Shown: positions 93 to 7,405, counted from the first letter of the stretch. The stretch: 56,053 nucleotides of DNA from Deltaproteobacteria bacterium (GCA_034670305.1 JAXMNT010000049.1:1-56053), one strand, 5' to 3'. Notes: generated by a model not told the origin, from the sequence alone. A program made the numbers and translations.

Positions 93-152
93 GCGGGCAA
101 GGGCACGGGCAAGGGCAACGGCAAGGGGCAGGTCGCTTTTCAGCGACCTGCT
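93..152 (-). repeat. Dispersed REP/MITE-like element: hairpin plus (CCCTTG)n, copy 1
   Basis: Perfect 10-bp hairpin GCAGGTCGCT-TTTC-AGCGACCTGC (128-151) next to GGGCAA-type hexamers. A related copy lies at 55937-56016. Confidence 0.7.
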
Positions 153-156
153 CGGT

Positions 157-1101
157 CTAAGCGGCGTGCACCAACGCGGCGGGCGCGGGTTTCTCTGCGG
201 CCACGGCCGGCTTCTCTTCAGCTTCGAGATGTTCGCCACGATCGCGCGCGCGTCCTTCGGCAAGCACGTGTTCGGGCACTGGACGGAGACCCCAGACGAT
301 GCCCACCGCAGCCAGGGCGCGGATCACGTAGTACGTGATGTCGATCTCCCACCAGTAGAAGCCGTTGCGGGTCGACGACTGGTAGCGGTGGTGGTTGTTG
401 TGCCAGCCCTCGCCCAGCGTGAGCAGTCCGAGCAGCCAGTGGTTTCGGCTGTCGTCGGTGGTCTCGAATCGGCGCTTGCCGAAGACGTGTGCGAGCGAGT
501 TGATGAGGAAGGTGTTGTGCCAGAGCAAGACGGTGCTGAGGAAGAAGCCGACCACGAGTCCTGACCAGCCCATCGTCGCCCAGCAAATCAGCGCCAGCAC
601 GATCGGCGGCACCAGGTAGTACTTGTTGAGCCACACGAGCTCCGGGTACTTCGCGAAATCCGGGATGCGCTTCATGTCGGTGGCTTCGGTCTCCGGGTCG
701 AAGAGCCAGAGCACGTGGGAGTACCAGAACCCGGTCTGAACCGGCGAGTGCACGTCCTTGGGGGTGTCGCTGTGCTTGTGGTGGTCCCGGTGGTGGGCTG
801 CCCACCAGAGCACGCCCTTCTGGGCGCTGCTCATCGCGAGCAAAGCGAGCACGGTCTGGAACACGCGGCCCGTCTTGAACGTGCGGTGCGAGAAGTACCG
901 GTGGTACCCGGCCGTGACGGCCCACTGGCGCACGACGAGCAACGAGACACAGGTGACGATCGCCGCGGTGCTGATCTCGATGAAGAACATGCTCAGCAGC
1001 GCGAGGTGGCAGAGAATGAATGGAATGGCGCCCGCCCACGCGATGCGCTTCGGCGAAGAAACGGTCGAGACGGGGCGCTCTCCTGAGTCTGTGATGTCCA
1101 T
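157..1101 (-). CDS. Acyl-CoA/acyl-lipid delta-9-type fatty acid desaturase
   Basis: His boxes HRYFSH, HHRDHH and GEGWHNNHH; DVHSP motif; hydrophobic segments. Confidence 0.93.
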   Translation of the reverse strand: MDITDSGERPVSTVSSPKRIAWAGAIPFILCHLALLSMFFIEISTAAIVTCVSLLVVRQWAVTAGYHRYFSHRTFKTGRVFQTVLALLAMSSAQKGVLWWAAHHRDHHKHSDTPKDVHSPVQTGFWYSHVLWLFDPETEATDMKRIPDFAKYPELVWLNKYYLVPPIVLALICWATMGWSGLVVGFFLSTVLLWHNTFLINSLAHVFGKRRFETTDDSRNHWLLGLLTLGEGWHNNHHRYQSSTRNGFYWWEIDITYYVIRALAAVGIVWGLRPVPEHVLAEGRARDRGEHLEAEEKPAVAAEKPAPAALVHAA

Positions 1102-1107
1102 GGATCC

Positions 1108-1204
1108 AAGCTACGGCGTGCCGCCCACAGCTGCCGTCACGGTTCCGCTCGACTCGGTCACACTTCGGTCACGACCTCCCGCCCGAATGTCACGAGCGGG
1201 TCAC
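1108..1204 (-). promoter_or_regulatory. Desaturase promoter: -10 TAGCTT plus five phased GTCAC direct repeats (putative OmpR-family boxes)
   Basis: TAGCTT on the minus strand at 1108-1113, 6 nt before the ATG. GTCAC starts at 1136, 1157, 1168, 1189 and 1200 (spacings 21, 11, 21, 11). Confidence 0.65.
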
Positions 1205-1222
1205 AGCGGCTGCAGCGTCAGT

Positions 1223-1369
1223 GCTTCGGCTTCGCCCTCGGGTTCGGCGTCGGCTTCGGCGTCGGCTTCGGCATCGGCGTCGGCATCGGCTTCGGCATCG
1301 GCTTCGGCATCGGCTTCGGCATCGGCTTCGGCTTCGGGTTCGGCTTCGGCTTCGGCTTCTTCGGCTTCG
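1223..1369. repeat. Intergenic hexamer tandem array (TCGGCT/TCGGCA/TCGGCG)n
   Basis: About 24 hexamer units between the response regulator stop and the desaturase promoter. Confidence 0.95.
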
Positions 1370-1385
1370 CTGGAACCCCGATGCG

Positions 1386-2093
1386 TTACCCGTTGCCCTC
1401 GGGCAGGAACCGGTAGCCAGCCCCTCGAACGCTCACGAAGAACCGAGGCTGCGTCGGCTTGGGTTCGAAGTGTCGCCGCAGCCGCGCGATGAAGTTGTCG
1501 ACGGTCCGGTTGTGTTCGACGTTCCGGAGTTTCCAGACCTTCTCGAGCAGCTCTCGACGGCTCAGCACCCGATGCGGGTGCTCCGCGAAGTAGCGAAGCA
1601 GGTCCAGTTCCAACTGGGTCAACTTGCGCGGCTCCTCGCCCACGAACACCTCGTGGGTGTCGAAGTCCACCCGCGCGTCACCGAACGCAAGCGAGCGTTG
1701 CCGAGGTTTGGTCTCCCCCTGCTCCCACTCGCGGCGCCGCAACATCGACCGCACCCGCGCGAGCAGCTCGTCGAGCGAGAACGGTTTGACGATGTAGTCG
1801 TCCGCACCGACCTCGAGTCCGCGGACCCGATCTTCGGCGGAGCCGCGCGCCGTCAACATGATCACGGGGACGAAGTTGCCGGCATCTCGCAGGCGGCGAC
1901 AGAGTTCGAAACCATCGAAGTCGGGCAACATGACGTCCAGCACGATCGCGTCGTAGCTGCCTTCGACCAAACGTTGGCTCGCCTGCCGTGCCGTCGGCGC
2001 GACATCGACCACGTACCCCTCGAGTTCGAGGTTGAGCTTCAGGCCCGCGGCCAGATGTTCTTCGTCTTCGACGACCAGGAGGGTGCCGCTCAT
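1386..2093 (-). CDS. OmpR/PhoB-family response regulator
   Basis: Receiver domain (VEDE, LDVMLP, LTAR, DDYIVKPF) plus winged-helix domain (RTVDNFIARLR, VRGAGYRF). Confidence 0.96.
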   Translation of the reverse strand: MSGTLLVVEDEEHLAAGLKLNLELEGYVVDVAPTARQASQRLVEGSYDAIVLDVMLPDFDGFELCRRLRDAGNFVPVIMLTARGSAEDRVRGLEVGADDYIVKPFSLDELLARVRSMLRRREWEQGETKPRQRSLAFGDARVDFDTHEVFVGEEPRKLTQLELDLLRYFAEHPHRVLSRRELLEKVWKLRNVEHNRTVDNFIARLRRHFEPKPTQPRFFVSVRGAGYRFLPEGNG

Positions 2094-3049
2094 GCTGGAG
2101 CCTCTTCCCGGTGAACGAGCACCGTCGCAGACGCAGGAAACTCCAGTCGCATCGTCGTACCCGTTCCTTCGCCGTCGGACAGCGCCCTCAACTTCGCACC
2201 CACCGCACGCGAGAGCATCGCGGCCACGTACAGTCCGAGGCCCGTGCCCTTGCGTTCGCGCGCGTGTCCCGACGACACCCGGTAGAACCGCTGAAAGATC
2301 CGTTGCAGTTGCCGCGGATCCAAACCGATGCCTCGATCGATCACGTCGATCCGGACGCCGCCGCGCGCGTCCTTGCTGCCGTGCACGCGGACCTGGATGG
2401 GCGGGTCCGAGTACTTCACCGCGTTGTCGACCAGGTTCCGGAGAATGACGAGCAGTGCGGTCTCGTCGGTCGCCACGACGAGATCCCCCGGCACGTCGAT
2501 GACGATGGCCCCCTCGTCGAGGTGCCGCCGGCGCGAGACCGCGTCGACCACCTCGCTCGCCAATGCAGATACGGGGACATCCGACAACGTCGTCCCATGG
2601 CTGGCGGCGTGCGCAAGCCTCGATGCTTGCAAAACGTCTTCGATGAACGTCGAGAGCCGCTCGACGTCGTCCAGCATCATGCCTTCGAGCTGCGCGCGTT
2701 TGTCCTCGGGCAACTCGTGGCGGGCCATGGTCTCGAGGCAGAGTTTGAGCGACGCCAGCGGGCTCTTCAGTTCATGGGTGACCGAATCGATGAAGGTGTC
2801 CTGCCGCCGGACTTCGAGGATCTCGCGCACGAGGTAGACGCTGAAGAGCACCAGCACGCTCATCAGGAACACGAAGCTGATCGCCCCGAGCACCAAGAGC
2901 CACAGATCGAGCGTGATCTCGCTGCCGTTCCCGAGGTTCTGGGAGATGAGCAGCGTCCACCCGACCAGGAGTGCCATGCTGATGGGCACGCTGATCGCAC
3001 CGAGGATGATCGGCGTCGAGATGGAGCGGAGATTGCGTCGACGCGCCAC
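2090..3049 (-). CDS. Sensor histidine kinase, 2 TM with a very short loop (intramembrane-sensing type)
   Basis: H-box THELKSPL, N-box NLVDNAVKY, G boxes DRGIG and GTGLGL. ATGA overlap with the regulator; GGAGGG precedes the GTG. Confidence 0.95.
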   Translation of the reverse strand: MARRRNLRSISTPIILGAISVPISMALLVGWTLLISQNLGNGSEITLDLWLLVLGAISFVFLMSVLVLFSVYLVREILEVRRQDTFIDSVTHELKSPLASLKLCLETMARHELPEDKRAQLEGMMLDDVERLSTFIEDVLQASRLAHAASHGTTLSDVPVSALASEVVDAVSRRRHLDEGAIVIDVPGDLVVATDETALLVILRNLVDNAVKYSDPPIQVRVHGSKDARGGVRIDVIDRGIGLDPRQLQRIFQRFYRVSSGHARERKGTGLGLYVAAMLSRAVGAKLRALSDGEGTGTTMRLEFPASATVLVHREEAPA

Positions 3050-3180
3050 CCTCCCCCCTTAGCACGGCGCTCGTCCGGTGGTCGGGATTTGAGTGGCCGG
3101 GACACCGGGCATCGGAGCGCGACTGGGCGACCGGTGGGTTCCCCTTGCGCCCAGCACGCAGCACCCGCCAGGCTGAAGCG

Positions 3181-4539
3181 ATGCAGAGCCCCTACTTGCT
3201 CGACGAGTACCGGCCGGTGAGCGAAGAAACGCCCGCCGTCGCGCTCGAGACCATCGAAGGCGCGGTCCCGCGCGCGCTCCATGGCAGTTTTGTCCGCAAC
3301 GGGCCCAACCCGCGCTTCGAACCCCTCGCTCGACACCATTGGTTCGACGGCGACGGCATGCTCCACGCGGTCCGGTTCGAAGACGGCGTCGCCCGCTACT
3401 CGAGCCGGTACGTGCGGACCGACGACTTCGGCGCGGAGACCGCGGCGGGACAGGGCCTCTTCCGCGGGCTGCTCGAATCGGTCTTCGACAACCCGGAGCA
3501 GCGGGGCAAGGACACCGGCAACACCGACGTCCTCTCGGTGGGCGGCGAGCTGCTGACCACGCACTACCAGTGCGGCGCCGGGTGGCGGGTGGATCCCGTC
3601 ACGCTCGAGACCCGAGGACGCCTCGCGCACCCGACGCGCTTGTCCGCCCACGCCAAGGTCGACCCGCGCACCGGAGAGCTGCTCTTCTTCGACTACCAGA
3701 AGCGTCCGCCGTACCTCACCGTGGGCTGGGTGGGTGACGACGGTTCCAAGGTCGTCGAACTCCCCGTCGACGAACCCGTCTTCCCGCACGACATGACCTT
3801 CACACCCGGCCACGCGATCGTGATGGCGCCGCCGGTCGTCCAGAGTGAAGCGCACGCCCGCGCGGGACGGTGGGGTGCGTTGATGGACAAGACGCGGCCG
3901 TTTCGGTTCTTCCTCGTGCCGCGCGCCGGTGGCGCGACACGGACCTTCGAAGCGAGCCCTTGTTACCTCTACCACGTGATCAACGCGTGGGAGTCCGAGG
4001 ACGGTCACCTCGTCCACCTGATCGGGTTCCGTTGCCCCGAACTCTTCGCCGGCATCGACCCCGACGATGGCCCCTACGCGGTGATGATGGCCAACCTGCG
4101 GCTGCGTGCGCAGCTGCACCGCTGGACGTTCGATCTGCGCACGGGCCAGACGAGTGAGACGCAACTCGACGATCGGTGCGCAGAGTTCCCCACCACCGAC
4201 GATCGACGGCTGGGGGTCCAGACGAAGTTTGGCTACGCGATGCGCATTCCGGACACCCGGCGGGTGAAGTTCGACGCGGTGCTCAAGTACGACCTGAACG
4301 ACGGCAGCCTCCTCGGGGCCCACGCCTTCGGGGAGGGACGCTCGGGCAGCGAAGCCCCGTTCGCACCCACCGGCCCAGGCGAAGACGAGGGGTACCTGGT
4401 CAGCTTCGTCTCGGACCCGCGCGAAGGACGCGACGAAGTGGTGGTGCTGGACGCGCCGACCATGCGGCCGGTGGCGCGACTCGCACTGCCCCACCGGGTT
4501 CCGGTGGGCTTTCATGCGTGCTGGTGCCCCGCGGCTTGA
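3181..4539 (+). CDS. Carotenoid cleavage oxygenase / lignostilbene dioxygenase family protein
   Basis: RNGPNP, HWFDGDGM, four Fe-ligand His (SAHAK, PHDM, YHVIN, GFHA) and EDEGYL. Start taken at ATG 3181. Confidence 0.92.
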   Translation: MQSPYLLDEYRPVSEETPAVALETIEGAVPRALHGSFVRNGPNPRFEPLARHHWFDGDGMLHAVRFEDGVARYSSRYVRTDDFGAETAAGQGLFRGLLESVFDNPEQRGKDTGNTDVLSVGGELLTTHYQCGAGWRVDPVTLETRGRLAHPTRLSAHAKVDPRTGELLFFDYQKRPPYLTVGWVGDDGSKVVELPVDEPVFPHDMTFTPGHAIVMAPPVVQSEAHARAGRWGALMDKTRPFRFFLVPRAGGATRTFEASPCYLYHVINAWESEDGHLVHLIGFRCPELFAGIDPDDGPYAVMMANLRLRAQLHRWTFDLRTGQTSETQLDDRCAEFPTTDDRRLGVQTKFGYAMRIPDTRRVKFDAVLKYDLNDGSLLGAHAFGEGRSGSEAPFAPTGPGEDEGYLVSFVSDPREGRDEVVVLDAPTMRPVARLALPHRVPVGFHACWCPAA

Positions 4540-7105: not shown

Positions 7106-7405
7106 TCGGCTTCGGCATCGGCTTCGGCTTCGGCTTCGGCTTCGGCTTCGGCTTCGGCATCGGCTTCGGCATCGGCTTCGGCTTCGGCTTCGGCATCGGC
7201 TTCGGCTTCGGCTTCGGCTTCGGCGTCGGATTCGGCGTCGGCTTCGGCGTCGGATTCGGCGTCGGCGTCGGCTTCGGCTTCCGCTTCGGCTTCGGCTTCG
7301 GCTTCGGCATCGGCTTCGGCATCGGCTTCGGCTTCCGCTTCCGCTTCCGCTTCCGCTTCCGCTTCCGCGCCCGCTCCCGCTCCCGCTTCCGCTTCCGCTT
7401 CCGCT
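7106..7405. repeat. Intergenic hexamer tandem array (TCGGCN)n grading into (TCCGCT)n
   Basis: About 50 hexamer units beginning just after the MutS-like stop codon. Confidence 0.95.

Follow-up and report, generated by a model that had tools for sequence, protein, structure and literature searches.

The window analyzed here, a 56,053-nucleotide stretch of deltaproteobacterial DNA, encodes a sensor histidine kinase (HK), a response regulator (RR) and a membrane fatty acid desaturase (Table 1). Reading of the open reading frames places all three genes on the minus strand, in agreement with an initial annotation that had described them as co-oriented. The HK stop codon and the RR start codon overlap in an ATGA at 2090-2093, and the regulator-desaturase spacer contains a hexamer microsatellite that is outside the operator described below; GCTTCG-like hexamer arrays of this kind number 630 across the genome. 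By Pfam, the neighbors of the HK/RR pair in the window are the desaturase and an RPE65-type oxygenase.

The desaturase scored 84 bits against Pfam FA_desaturase, its translation carries three histidine boxes (HRYFSH, HRDHH and HNNHH, corresponding to the pattern HxxxxH, HxxHH, HxxHH), and its PDB match is SCD1 (4YMK, E 1.3e-34). The domain, the three boxes and the similarity to SCD1 place it among the Delta9-type (stearoyl-CoA/DesC-like) membrane desaturases, and the position of the double bond is predicted from this family likeness to be of the Delta9 type. RR combines a receiver (Response_reg, 104.2 bits) with a C-terminal winged helix (Trans_reg_C, 76.1 bits), both above their cut-offs, and is therefore a member of the OmpR/PhoB family. 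The best NCBIfam matches of the two signaling proteins fell short of their cut-offs, namely PhoB for RR (TIGR02154, 210.1 bits vs. 296.2) and PhoR for HK (TIGR02966, 149 bits vs. 334.2), with HK aligning to the PhoR model over its catalytic part alone (model positions 104-332).

HK contains HisKA (PF00512, 39.2 bits, residues 83-146) and HATPase_c (84.8 bits) and no other Pfam domain. In its AlphaFold2 model (mean pLDDT 77.2), a helix spanning residues 5-40 is followed by a 4-residue turn and an unbroken helix, 45-108, which bears the phospho-accepting H92, such that the second transmembrane (TM) helix runs without interruption into the DHp helix. Since this single helix continues through H92, no HAMP or other input domain is present in HK; likewise, neither Pfam nor the continuity of TM helix 2 with DHp in the model revealed a PAS domain linking membrane anchor and catalytic core. 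An alignment of 15 HK orthologs (A1, with L025 excluded because of a stop codon) limits the non-helical, variable loop to ~14 residues or fewer. Pfam, alignment and model thus bear out the initial description of a kinase with two TM helices, a loop of ~15 residues and no obvious HAMP or sensor domain, and HK, as modeled, consists of a hairpin of two membrane helices that leads directly into a catalytic core. Intramembrane-sensing histidine kinases are defined, in a portion of PMC8534201, as membrane-anchored kinases without an extracytoplasmic sensor domain. With a loop of ~4-14 residues and its input confined to the membrane helices, HK falls into this broad class.

Table 1. Features of the kinase-regulator-desaturase locus, in window positions.
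Feature	Position	Strand	Basis
Membrane fatty acid desaturase, predicted stearoyl-CoA (Delta9) type, 314 aa	157..1101	-	Pfam FA_desaturase
-10-like hexamer TAGCTT (TAnnnT), 6 nt before start codon	1108..1113	-	Sequence reading
Box 5, proximal, GGAACCGTGAC, 12.8 bits	1136..1146	-	Matrix score
Box 4, 11 bp from box 3	1157..1167	-	Sequence reading
Box 3, 21 bp from box 2	1168..1178	-	Sequence reading
Box 2, 11 bp from box 1	1189..1199	-	Sequence reading
Box 1, most distal, 11-bp unit ending in GTGAC as read on gene-sense strand	1200..1210	-	Sequence reading
Hexamer microsatellite, GCTTCG-like, 22.8 copies, in regulator-desaturase spacer	1223..1359		Tandem Repeats Finder
OmpR/PhoB-family response regulator (RR), 235 aa	1386..2093	-	Pfam Response_reg + Trans_reg_C
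Sensor histidine kinase (HK), 319 aa	2090..3049	-	ORF + Pfam HisKA, HATPase_c
Phospho-accepting H92 codon, H-box SVTHELKSPL	2774..2776	-	Invariant in 15-ortholog alignment; HisKA match
TM helix 2, ~residues 50-75; L52, G55, S58 invariant, W50 nearly	2825..2902	-	15-ortholog alignment; AlphaFold2
TM helix 1, ~residues 12-35; P13, W31 invariant	2945..3016	-	15-ortholog alignment; AlphaFold2 helix 5-40

Phased direct repeats in the desaturase promoter

On the plus strand, GTCAC occurs at 1136, 1157, 1168, 1189 and 1200, with spacings of 21, 11, 21 and 11 bp. The initial annotation had given exactly these positions, and the arrangement is beyond chance: GTCAC is rarer than expected in the window (99 copies vs. 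164.6), while GTCAC-N6-GTCAC occurs twice against an expectation of 0.25, a count reached by 2 of 100 shuffles. The genome scan that the annotation had proposed for this pattern returned 14 sites in 7.93 Mb, two of them at the desaturase promoter, compared to 5 sites for the reversed control pattern. This promoter is also the sole same-strand cluster of five GTCAC within 80 bp that is not a plain tandem array. A GTCAC triple on another contig (C31:71425-71451) was rejected as a target, as it is located before purH in the opposite orientation and scores below 14 bits with the matrix.

From box 5 it is 22 nt to the -10-like hexamer and 40 nt to the ATG. The proximal GTCAC had been placed where a -35 element would be, and it does adjoin the -35 hexamer position, but it occupies ~-39 to -35 from the start codon and so does not coincide exactly with a -35 element. 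Boxes 3 and 4, taken as a dimer, score 17.2 bits with a matrix built without this locus and are the counterpart of the conserved distal pair in the orthologs. A consensus scan of 1000-1500 detected neither a sigma-70 promoter nor a terminator. The ECF-sigma -35 consensus suggested GGAAC as a -35 element; this reading was rejected because three to five copies of the unit recur in phase, with no matching -10 motif downstream of them.

Across 59 non-identical desaturase promoters, whose gene starts were set by crude rules and whose relatedness means that counts overstate independence, pairs of sense-strand T[GT]AC were separated by 11 bp (72 pairs), 21 bp (56), 32 bp (40), 10 bp (17) and 43 bp (9), compared to ~0.2 pairs expected per spacing in shuffled promoters. 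The motif itself was found in 205 sense and 8 antisense copies, and 177 sites yielded the 11-bp unit consensus c-g-A-A-C-n-R-T-G-A-C. A dimer of at least 14.7 bits was present in 55 of the 59 promoters vs. 0.2% of random 530-nt windows of the genome, and before none of the four other FA_desaturase-family genes of this genome. Boxes were kept at all five desaturase loci that are unlinked, displaced or convergent, and a second desaturase copy in genome G011 has them too (22.3 bits). Phased repeats are thus conserved in the orthologous promoters, where conservation had been suggested as a check, and the dominant 11-bp period accords with their earlier description as direct repeats of the OmpR/PhoB kind. 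Judged from this comparative evidence, the repeats are a conserved cis-element of the desaturase promoter. Direct repeats of 11-bp period recur in the predicted target promoters, with RR as their putative binder.

The position of the repeats is constrained as well. TAnnnT was found 5-8 nt before the candidate start codon in 30 of the 59 promoters, and its distance from the proximal box was exactly 22 nt in 24 of these 30 and 21-22 nt in 26, even though the intervening sequence varies. This geometry (22-nt gap, TAnnnT, proximity to the start codon) fits an activator-dependent promoter, and the desaturase mRNA is probably leaderless.

Linkage to the kinase/regulator pair and predicted further targets

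HK orthologs were found in all 24 same-family genomes, and RR orthologs (52-79% identity) co-occur with them. Kinase-regulator-desaturase synteny was observed at 19 of 28 ortholog loci when 1.5-kb flanks were considered, and cultured Nannocystis species share this gene order, which makes the prediction amenable to bench testing. Among 63 loci with an HK of at least 44% identity, a desaturase lies within 3 kb in 41 and not in the other 22. In other Myxococcota families, a desaturase was not seen within ~2.8 kb of the pair at any of the 16 loci sampled; the synteny, which had been suggested as a check across Myxococcota, is far from universal. At four loci (L020, L021, L041 and L052) RR is inverted, and a box-bearing spacer is common to RR and the desaturase. 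A carotenoid oxygenase adjoins the pair at three loci, and no conserved transporter or membrane partner gene was found beside it in the ortholog loci using four query proteins and ORF reading. Autoregulation was rejected as a reading, with a dimer of at least 14.7 bits in only 2 of 85 regions upstream of HK and no GTCAC from 2782 to 3598 in the window.

Between genomes, boxes and pair go together, though not cleanly. Of seven desaturase homologs in genomes that lack the pair, only one reaches 14.7 bits. Strict co-occurrence is broken by two genomes, G030, with an 18.9-bit dimer before its desaturase, and G036 (85% complete), with a good unit before pfaD; in both, the regulators found were only 41-42% identical to RR. 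An RR ortholog search of five genomes at E 1e-45 returned only paralogs of 40-47% identity. Conversely, G025 has the pair, and no unit was found before its pfaD. Gene order across these loci supports the assignment of the boxes to this kinase/regulator pair.

The regulon scan used the matrix built without the own locus and required a start codon 36-46 nt downstream of an intergenic match. The three best such matches precede a small PlsC-like acyltransferase gene (23.3 bits), pfaD/pfa1 (18.5 bits) and trhA (18.0 bits), and no pst or pho genes were among the best genome matches. pfa1 heads a PUFA synthase cluster: its product exceeds the PfaD model (TIGR02814, 612.1 bits vs. a cut-off of 449.25), and it is followed by genes encoding KS-AT-ACPs-KR-DH and then KS-...-FabA DH-AGPAT. 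This pfa1-pfa2-pfa3 domain order matches that of the myxobacterial PUFA synthase in the part of PMC8436480 that describes it. TrhA, of the PAQR family, likewise exceeds its model (NF011669, 140.3 bits vs. a cut-off of 80; Pfam HlyIII, 148.9 bits). The desaturase is an oxygen-dependent enzyme, and the PUFA synthase an oxygen-independent one.

Conservation differed among these candidates. Of 16 same-family genomes that have the pair, 15 keep the pfaD boxes, again with a gap of 22-23 nt to TAnnnn; these include G006 and G010, where the pair is present and the desaturase ortholog absent. The trhA boxes are kept at 4 of 4 evaluable loci, and those of the acyltransferase in just 4 of 28 orthologs. 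At three loci lacking this desaturase in other lineages (L062, L082 and L083), arrays are found directly beside the pair before other lipid genes, namely a different desaturase in L062 and a fabH gene in L082. Nannocystis punicea (L071) gave no PfaD match at 1e-60, and its TrhA homolog (38% identical) is without boxes; the one strict three-unit site in this record precedes an unrelated gene that has a long leader. The initial annotation, which had confined the circuit to the desaturase, is corrected in this respect: the circuit is predicted to extend to the PUFA synthase operon, trhA and the acyltransferase.

Proposed mechanism, alternatives and known systems

We propose that the locus encodes a two-component switch for membrane-lipid unsaturation, and we give this reading, mechanism included, a probability of roughly 60%. 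The input would be the conserved two-helix hairpin, whose second helix would pass straight into the phospho-accepting helix. Phosphorylated RR would bind the 11-bp direct-repeat units head-to-tail on one face of the DNA, occupying a strong distal pair and a proximal unit at ~-45 to -35. The promoter would consist of a TAnnnT -10 element without a recognizable -35, its transcript starting at or next to the start codon, and the proximal RR molecule would recruit RNA polymerase in the fashion of a class-II activator. The main target would be the Delta9-type desaturase, joined by pfa1 (the PUFA synthase operon), trhA (encoding a PAQR membrane-homeostasis protein) and the small PlsC-like acyltransferase gene. 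We infer that RR binds the boxes and activates from them, and that HK reads a physical or lipid property of the bilayer, such as its thickness or order, for instance when the temperature drops. Sensing of membrane fluidity or lipids is suggested by the bareness of the hairpin and by predicted targets that belong to lipid metabolism or the membrane. The most specific version, that the hairpin directly gauges bilayer order or thickness and that one OmpR-type activator co-ordinates desaturase, PUFA synthase, acyltransferase and TrhA, is tentative, and the odds lean against it.

If the boxes are real regulator sites, the HK signal could still come from an accessory membrane protein, as that of BceS does from BceAB, from a lipid or fatty acid ligand, or from a different stress such as pH, oxygen or damage to the envelope. 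According to a section of PMC8534201, kinases with two helices and no extracytoplasmic domain are often signal-transfer devices, which receive the signal from a partner protein rather than sensing it on their own; moreover, no sequence feature names the stimulus, and the predicted targets TrhA and desaturase are membrane proteins that could feed back on HK. However, four query proteins and ORF reading showed no conserved partner gene beside the pair in the ortholog loci, and the hairpin is both strongly conserved, with five invariant residues (P13, W31, L52, G55, S58) and a nearly invariant W50, and rigidly fused to the catalytic helix, as expected of a DesK-like direct membrane sensor. We therefore regard a signal of this other kind as unlikely, if a serious contender. 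That the repeats are bound by another factor, such as a different OmpR-family regulator, with the neighboring pair controlling something else, appears quite improbable. The two genomes with boxes and no detectable pair ortholog, the at least eight PhoB-like regulators in this genome and the separation of pair and desaturase in many Myxococcota would allow for it, but it is opposed by the synteny at 41 of 63 loci, the four divergent loci with a common box-bearing spacer, the arrays adjoining the pair at loci without this desaturase and the scarcity of boxes at desaturase homologs where the pair is missing.

RR might instead repress, with boxes at the -35 blocking RNA polymerase and the lipid genes on when RR is dephosphorylated. 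Many regulators do repress from the position of the proximal box, but repression calls for overlap rather than for constant phasing with the sites further upstream, and the exact 22-nt distance to the -10 in promoters without a -35 consensus is as expected when a bound protein replaces the -35 contact, as at PhoB-dependent promoters; we consider repression very unlikely. Finally, both proteins are closest in sequence to the PhoR/PhoB family of E. coli, and E. coli Pho boxes are direct repeats of 11-bp period that replace the -35 and activate from there. The core of our unit on the other strand (GTCAY) resembles the Pho-box core TGTCA, so the pair could be PhoR/PhoB and the boxes could serve lipid remodeling under phosphate starvation. 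We rejected this reading, which is hardly credible given that both proteins fall far below the curated equivalog cut-offs, that HK has no PAS region and matches PhoR in its catalytic part only, and that a better PhoB-like regulator (255.6 bits), paired with a 602-aa kinase, is encoded on contig C94. PhoR/PhoB, furthermore, controls phosphate uptake, whereas the predicted targets here are lipid genes, and the best genome matches include no pst or pho gene.

Returning to the proposed unsaturation switch, our literature search found no paper describing this two-component/desaturase system, and its closest relatives in logic differ from it in construction. DesK of Bacillus subtilis has a five-helix membrane domain and DesR a NarL/LuxR-type DNA-binding domain, whereas HK has two membrane helices and belongs to the HisKA (PF00512) type, and RR is of the OmpR/PhoB type (Trans_reg_C). 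The pair thus lies outside the DesK/DesR family, consistent with its initial characterization as independently built. In addition, the Bacillus desaturase is a Delta5 enzyme, unlike the Delta9/SCD-like enzyme here, and the regulon predicted here is wider, including PUFA synthase, trhA and acyltransferase genes. The likeness to DesK/DesR-des, as outlined in part of PMC8534201, resides in a kinase that lacks an extracytoplasmic domain and has its final membrane helix entering the phospho-accepting helix, in a partner regulator that drives a membrane desaturase gene, and in a logic that in Bacillus restores membrane fluidity.

The initial annotation, which took DesK/DesR as the classical comparison, needs correction in that a desaturase under OmpR-type control is already known: in Synechocystis the membrane kinase Hik33 (NblS) and the OmpR-family regulator RpaB control cold- and fluidity-dependent desB (excerpt of PMC6789579), RpaB binding the paired direct repeats HLR1 (excerpts of PMC6789579 and bioRxiv 10.1101/443713). 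Hik33 carries HAMP and PAS domains in the same excerpt of PMC6789579, whereas HK has neither, and HLR1 consists of octamer repeats 2 nt apart rather than boxes of 11-bp period. RpaB is a global photosynthesis regulator, unlike the lipid regulon predicted here, and the pair scored well below the RpaB (193.6 bits vs. a cut-off of 330) and NblS (78.7 bits vs. 1000) NCBIfam models, so it does not belong to this family. BceS-type kinases, as characterized in part of PMC8534201, resemble HK in that they span the membrane with two helices joined by a minimal loop, are devoid of an extracytoplasmic domain and work with an OmpR-family regulator. BceS is coupled genetically and functionally to the neighboring ABC transporter BceAB, on which it depends, and serves peptide-antibiotic resistance, in contrast with the pair here, beside which four query proteins and ORF reading showed no transporter and whose predicted outputs are lipid-synthesis genes. 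FabR, which binds acyl thioesters, represses as a one-component regulator, whereas the control proposed here is by a two-component system at an activator-type promoter. The FabR regulon of E. coli (fabA, fabB and trhA/yqfA) nevertheless provides a parallel, as trhA is co-regulated there with unsaturated fatty acid genes (a passage of PMC9017321), and trhA here shares its boxes with the desaturase and PUFA synthase genes.

Known cases in which bacteria sense and correct their membrane state are few, chiefly DesK/DesR of Bacillus and, in part, cyanobacterial Hik33, and the locus described here combines a far simpler sensor with a DNA operator that is clear and conserved. If the most specific version of our reading is true, the circuit would represent, in Polyangia and, by the labels of metagenome-assembled genomes, in some Gammaproteobacteria, a master regulon for homeoviscous control and the Gram-negative counterpart of DesK/DesR that has long been missing. 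It would also provide the first regulator known for myxobacterial PUFA synthases, one that would be testable and of biotechnological interest for PUFA production, as well as a bacterial parallel to the eukaryotic PAQR-desaturase link that would give a functional context to bacterial PAQR proteins. The kinase itself would offer a minimal model of bilayer-to-kinase signaling.

Gene identities, kinase input and distribution

The pair, a histidine kinase and an OmpR/PhoB-type response regulator, adjoins a fatty acid desaturase gene (table below), with the kinase stop and the regulator start overlapping as ATGA and a 284-bp spacer separating the regulator from the desaturase. Read in translation, the desaturase carries the histidine boxes HRYFSH, HRDHH and HNNHH. 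On the strength of its match to the mammalian stearoyl-CoA desaturase 4YMK (E 1.3e-34), we class it as a Delta9-type enzyme by family. PhoB and PhoR were the best NCBIfam matches of the regulator and kinase, but both identities were rejected because the scores fell far short of the cut-offs (210 vs 296 bits and 149 vs 334 bits, respectively); a better PhoB-like gene, together with a 602-aa kinase, is found on contig C94 of the same genome.

Features of the locus in the window (plain coordinates) and, among operator matches that passed the start-codon and frame filter, the best intergenic ones elsewhere in the genome (contig:position)
Feature	Position	Strand	Description
Histidine kinase	2090-3049	minus	319 aa; Pfam HisKA and HATPase_c only
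Response regulator	1386-2093	minus	235 aa; Pfam Response_reg and Trans_reg_C
Desaturase	157-1101	minus	314 aa; Pfam FA_desaturase
RPE65-type carotenoid oxygenase	3181-4539	plus, divergent from kinase	Pfam 373.7 bits
Hexamer microsatellite GCTTCG x22.8	1223-1359		intergenic
Hexamer microsatellite TCGGCT x50	7106-7405		intergenic
Hexamer microsatellite GGGCAA x5.5	95-127		intergenic
Site before PlsC-like acyltransferase	C10:77406		23.3 bits; 195 aa, PF01553; among three best intergenic matches
Site before PfaD	C1:33279		18.5 bits; among three best intergenic matches
Site before HlyIII/PAQR protein (TrhA)	C8:71831		18.0 bits; among three best intergenic matches

The input end of the kinase is a bare hairpin. 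No HAMP, PAS or periplasmic domain was found in the kinase by Pfam or in its AlphaFold2 model (mean pLDDT 77.2, pTM 0.67), and the two transmembrane helices described in the initial annotation were borne out by the model and by an alignment of 15 kinase orthologs. Across these orthologs the N-terminus is conserved as MARRRNL-SISTPIILGA ... LLVGW ... variable loop ... VWLLVLGAxSF, with P13, W31, L52, G55 and S58 invariant and W50 nearly so, and the segment EVRRQDxFIDSVTHELKSPL, containing the phospho-accepting H92, follows directly after the hairpin. In the model, a helix spanning residues 5-40 is joined by a four-residue turn to a single unbroken helix (45-108), in which membrane helix 2 and DHp helix 1 are one.

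Kinase orthologs were present in 24/24 same-family genomes and in 3/16 other families of the order, and in a phylum-wide sample of 301 genomes, 91 gave profile matches at E 1e-60 or better. Regulator orthologs co-occurred with the kinase in 23 of the 24 same-family genomes, the sole miss lying at a contig end, and in the three further families that have the kinase. By their record titles, related loci belong to Myxococcota, class Polyangia (Polyangiales, Sandaracinaceae and Nannocystaceae), and the cultured carriers among them are Nannocystis punicea, N. bainbridge and N. sp. RBIL2; some MAGs that share the gene order bear the label Steroidobacteraceae or Gammaproteobacteria, although such labels may err. 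Synteny with the desaturase is incomplete. A desaturase lay within the 1.5-kb flank at 19 of 28 kinase ortholog loci and within 3 kb at 41 of 63 loci with a kinase of 44% identity or more. Arguing against universality, none was found within 3 kb at the other 22, and 0/16 loci from other Myxococcota families had one within ~2.8 kb. At four loci (L020, L021, L041 and L052) the regulator is inverted, so that a single short spacer separates it from a divergently oriented desaturase.

Other families of the order also carry distant short kinases (~315-360 aa; locus L030 and genomes G030, G033, G036 and G037) that are 28-35% identical over nearly their full length and are paired with regulators 41-47% identical. 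The RPE65-type oxygenase neighbors the pair in L041 and L052 as well, and boxes are absent from the kinase/oxygenase spacer of the window. GCCGAN/NTCGGC arrays of at least 6 units number 630 genome-wide (~43 kb in total); one hexamer array lies between the regulator gene and the desaturase operator, and another precedes C9:22977. A palindromic element, AAAAGGGGACAGTCCCCTTTT, which resembles a dispersed hairpin repeat or terminator, was seen in the relatives L013, L060 and L130: some relatives have two copies between regulator and desaturase, and the palindrome is also found near the acyltransferase gene.

A phased operator before the desaturase

GTCAC, which reads GTGAC in the gene sense, occurs at 1136, 1157, 1168, 1189 and 1200, just as the initial annotation had claimed. 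Since the pentamer is rarer than expected in the window (99 observed vs 164.6), GTCAC-N6-GTCAC occurs twice in the window vs 0.25 expected and only 14 times in a scan of the 7.93-Mb genome, and five same-strand copies within 80 bp are found nowhere else in the genome except in two plain tandem arrays, the repeats do not reflect a chance pattern.

The phasing is conserved among relatives. Within the 59 non-identical 130-nt upstream regions derived from 64 desaturase loci, sense-strand T[GT]AC pairs were spaced by 11 (72 pairs), 21 (56), 32 (40), 10 (17) and 43 nt (9), compared with ~0.2 pairs per spacing in shuffled controls, and copies numbered 205 on the sense strand vs 8 on the antisense strand; these promoters are mutually related, so the counts overstate independence, although the sequence separating the cores varies freely. 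The 11-bp unit has the consensus c-g-A-A-C-n-R-T-G-A-C (177 phased sites). Two-unit sites scoring 14.7 bits or more were present in 55 of the 59 desaturase promoters; ahead of the kinase gene, just 2 of 85 regions had one, as did 0.2% of 530-nt windows drawn at random from the genome that contains the locus. The motif conservation that the initial annotation proposed to check was found among these relatives, and the repeats are predicted to be a conserved operator.

The boxes stay with the desaturase when it moves: they were kept in all five displaced desaturases, whether on another contig (G008 and G014), 2.6 kb further on (G007), convergent (G012) or found beyond the first locus (G034), and they also precede a second desaturase copy in G011 (22.3 bits). 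Seven desaturase homologs (47-57% identity) come from genomes with no detected ortholog of the pair, and only that of G030 had a strong dimer (18.9 bits), the remaining six scoring at most 12.8 bits. No two-unit site was found before the four other FA_desaturase-family genes of the window's own genome. At L044, where no desaturase is nearby, a 17.3-bit two-unit site (position 2909) and a third unit lie just upstream of the kinase gene, which could reflect autoregulation in that lineage only.

The operator keeps a constant distance from a -10-like element. In 30/59 desaturase promoters, TAnnnT is found 5-8 nt ahead of a candidate start codon; 24 of the 30 have precisely 22 nt between this hexamer and the closest RTGA(C/T) upstream of it, and 26 have 21-22 nt. 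In the first set of 23 loci, the proximal pentamer begins 35-42 nt before the chosen start codon at 17. The window promoter reads GGAACCGTGAC (1146-1136), 22 nt, TAGCTT (1113-1108), 6 nt, ATG (1101), and no sigma-70 consensus promoter was found in 1000-1500. If TAnnnT is the -10 element, transcripts would start at or next to the ATG and the desaturase mRNA would be leaderless; the proximal unit would then span ~-45 to -35, the place of a class-II activator substituting for the absent -35 element. Most commonly, a strong distal pair comes first, then a degenerate unit and the proximal unit; the window has an extra upstream pair. By the precedent of OmpR and PhoB, this layout suggests that the sites may be filled cooperatively, beginning at the strong distal units and ending at the weak proximal unit.

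Recurrence of the operator before lipid genes

A whole-genome scan with a unit matrix built without the window's own locus returned 58 two-unit sites of at least 14 bits, which were filtered for an open, coding-like frame whose start codon lies 36-46 nt past the proximal unit. The three best intergenic sites that passed precede the acyltransferase, PfaD and TrhA genes (table). C41:39436 (19.6 bits, second overall) was set aside as lying inside a longer frame. The genome's top two-unit site (23.4 bits; C94:935-956) is a perfect 11-bp tandem duplication just past the stop codon of the gene encoding the 602-aa PhoR-like kinase, with no downstream gene in its orientation. At C31:71425-71451, ~50 nt before purH, GTCAC occurs three times with a spacing of exactly 11 bp; the copies have the orientation opposite to the desaturase promoter, and the site scores below 14 bits with the unit matrix.

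The operator recurs before lipid genes. PfaD scored 612 bits on TIGR02814 (cut-off 449) and TrhA 140 bits on NF011669 (cut-off 80). Two giant genes come after PfaD, KS-AT-4xACP-KR-DH and then KS-...-2xFabA-DH-AGPAT, a domain order that corresponds to the myxobacterial pfa1-pfa2-pfa3 layout as described in PMC8436480. The hexamer 6 nt before the ATG is TAGGAT for the acyltransferase and TAGACC for pfa1, and their proximal units lie at -41 and -39, respectively.

Conservation differed among these sites. Among the 16 same-family genomes that have the pair, 15 carry before pfaD a unit scoring 12 bits or more, with TAnnnn 22-23 nt further on; G006 and G010, which have the pair and no desaturase ortholog, belong to these 15. 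A second unit was present in about half. No unit was found before pfaD in G025, which has the pair. The trhA site was present in 4/4 orthologs of at least 55% identity with available upstream DNA (the window's own genome, G014, G012 and G010; one further ortholog lies at a contig end, outside this count), and no phased site was found in five more distant trhA homologs. In Nannocystis punicea, PfaD was not found and a distant TrhA homolog lacks boxes. Only 4 of 28 acyltransferase orthologs (the window's own genome, G017, G004 and G011) have the site, which looks like a recent, lineage-limited recruitment; ATGAC-N6-ATGAC precedes the acyltransferase of G040, a genome that lacks the pair. At two loci without the Delta9 desaturase, a four-unit array lies beside the pair, before a different FA_desaturase (92 bits; L062) or a divergent fabH gene (L082), and L083 has a further array at a contig end.

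Regulator, stimulus and known systems

We put the probability that the regulator of the pair binds the boxes at about 0.8. Several results go against the overall reading: the findings on G025 and N. punicea given above, and the boxes of G030 and G036 (the latter genome 85% complete), where no ortholog of the pair was detected and the regulators found, beside short kinases, are only 41-42% identical; the distant short kinase/regulator pairs may be functional equivalents, which could explain boxes in such genomes. Given binding by the regulator, activation is likely. The initial annotation had proposed a membrane-fluidity or lipid-sensing circuit; for the stimulus, a bilayer property such as order or thickness is a tentative candidate, at slightly less than even odds, because there is no other input, because the tryptophans, proline, glycine and serine of the hairpin are conserved, and because the outputs all act on acyl-chain unsaturation or placement. 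By analogy, the lipid-homeostasis reading is supported by E. coli trhA, which PMC9017321 places in the unsaturated-fatty-acid (FabR) regulon.

Comparison with known systems sets the pair apart. The contrast with DesK/DesR drawn in the initial annotation was upheld, as helix number and regulator family both differ (PMC8534201; Pfam). Hik33 carries HAMP and PAS domains (PMC6789579), whereas this kinase has neither, and BceS-type kinases need a neighboring ABC transporter (PMC8534201), whereas none was seen beside this pair. Our literature search, with most subscription journals outside its scope, returned no OmpR-type two-helix kinase system beside a desaturase or pfa cluster in myxobacteria. 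Two-component control of a desaturase is already known; what we rate as new here is the sensor, the regulator and the wider predicted regulon.
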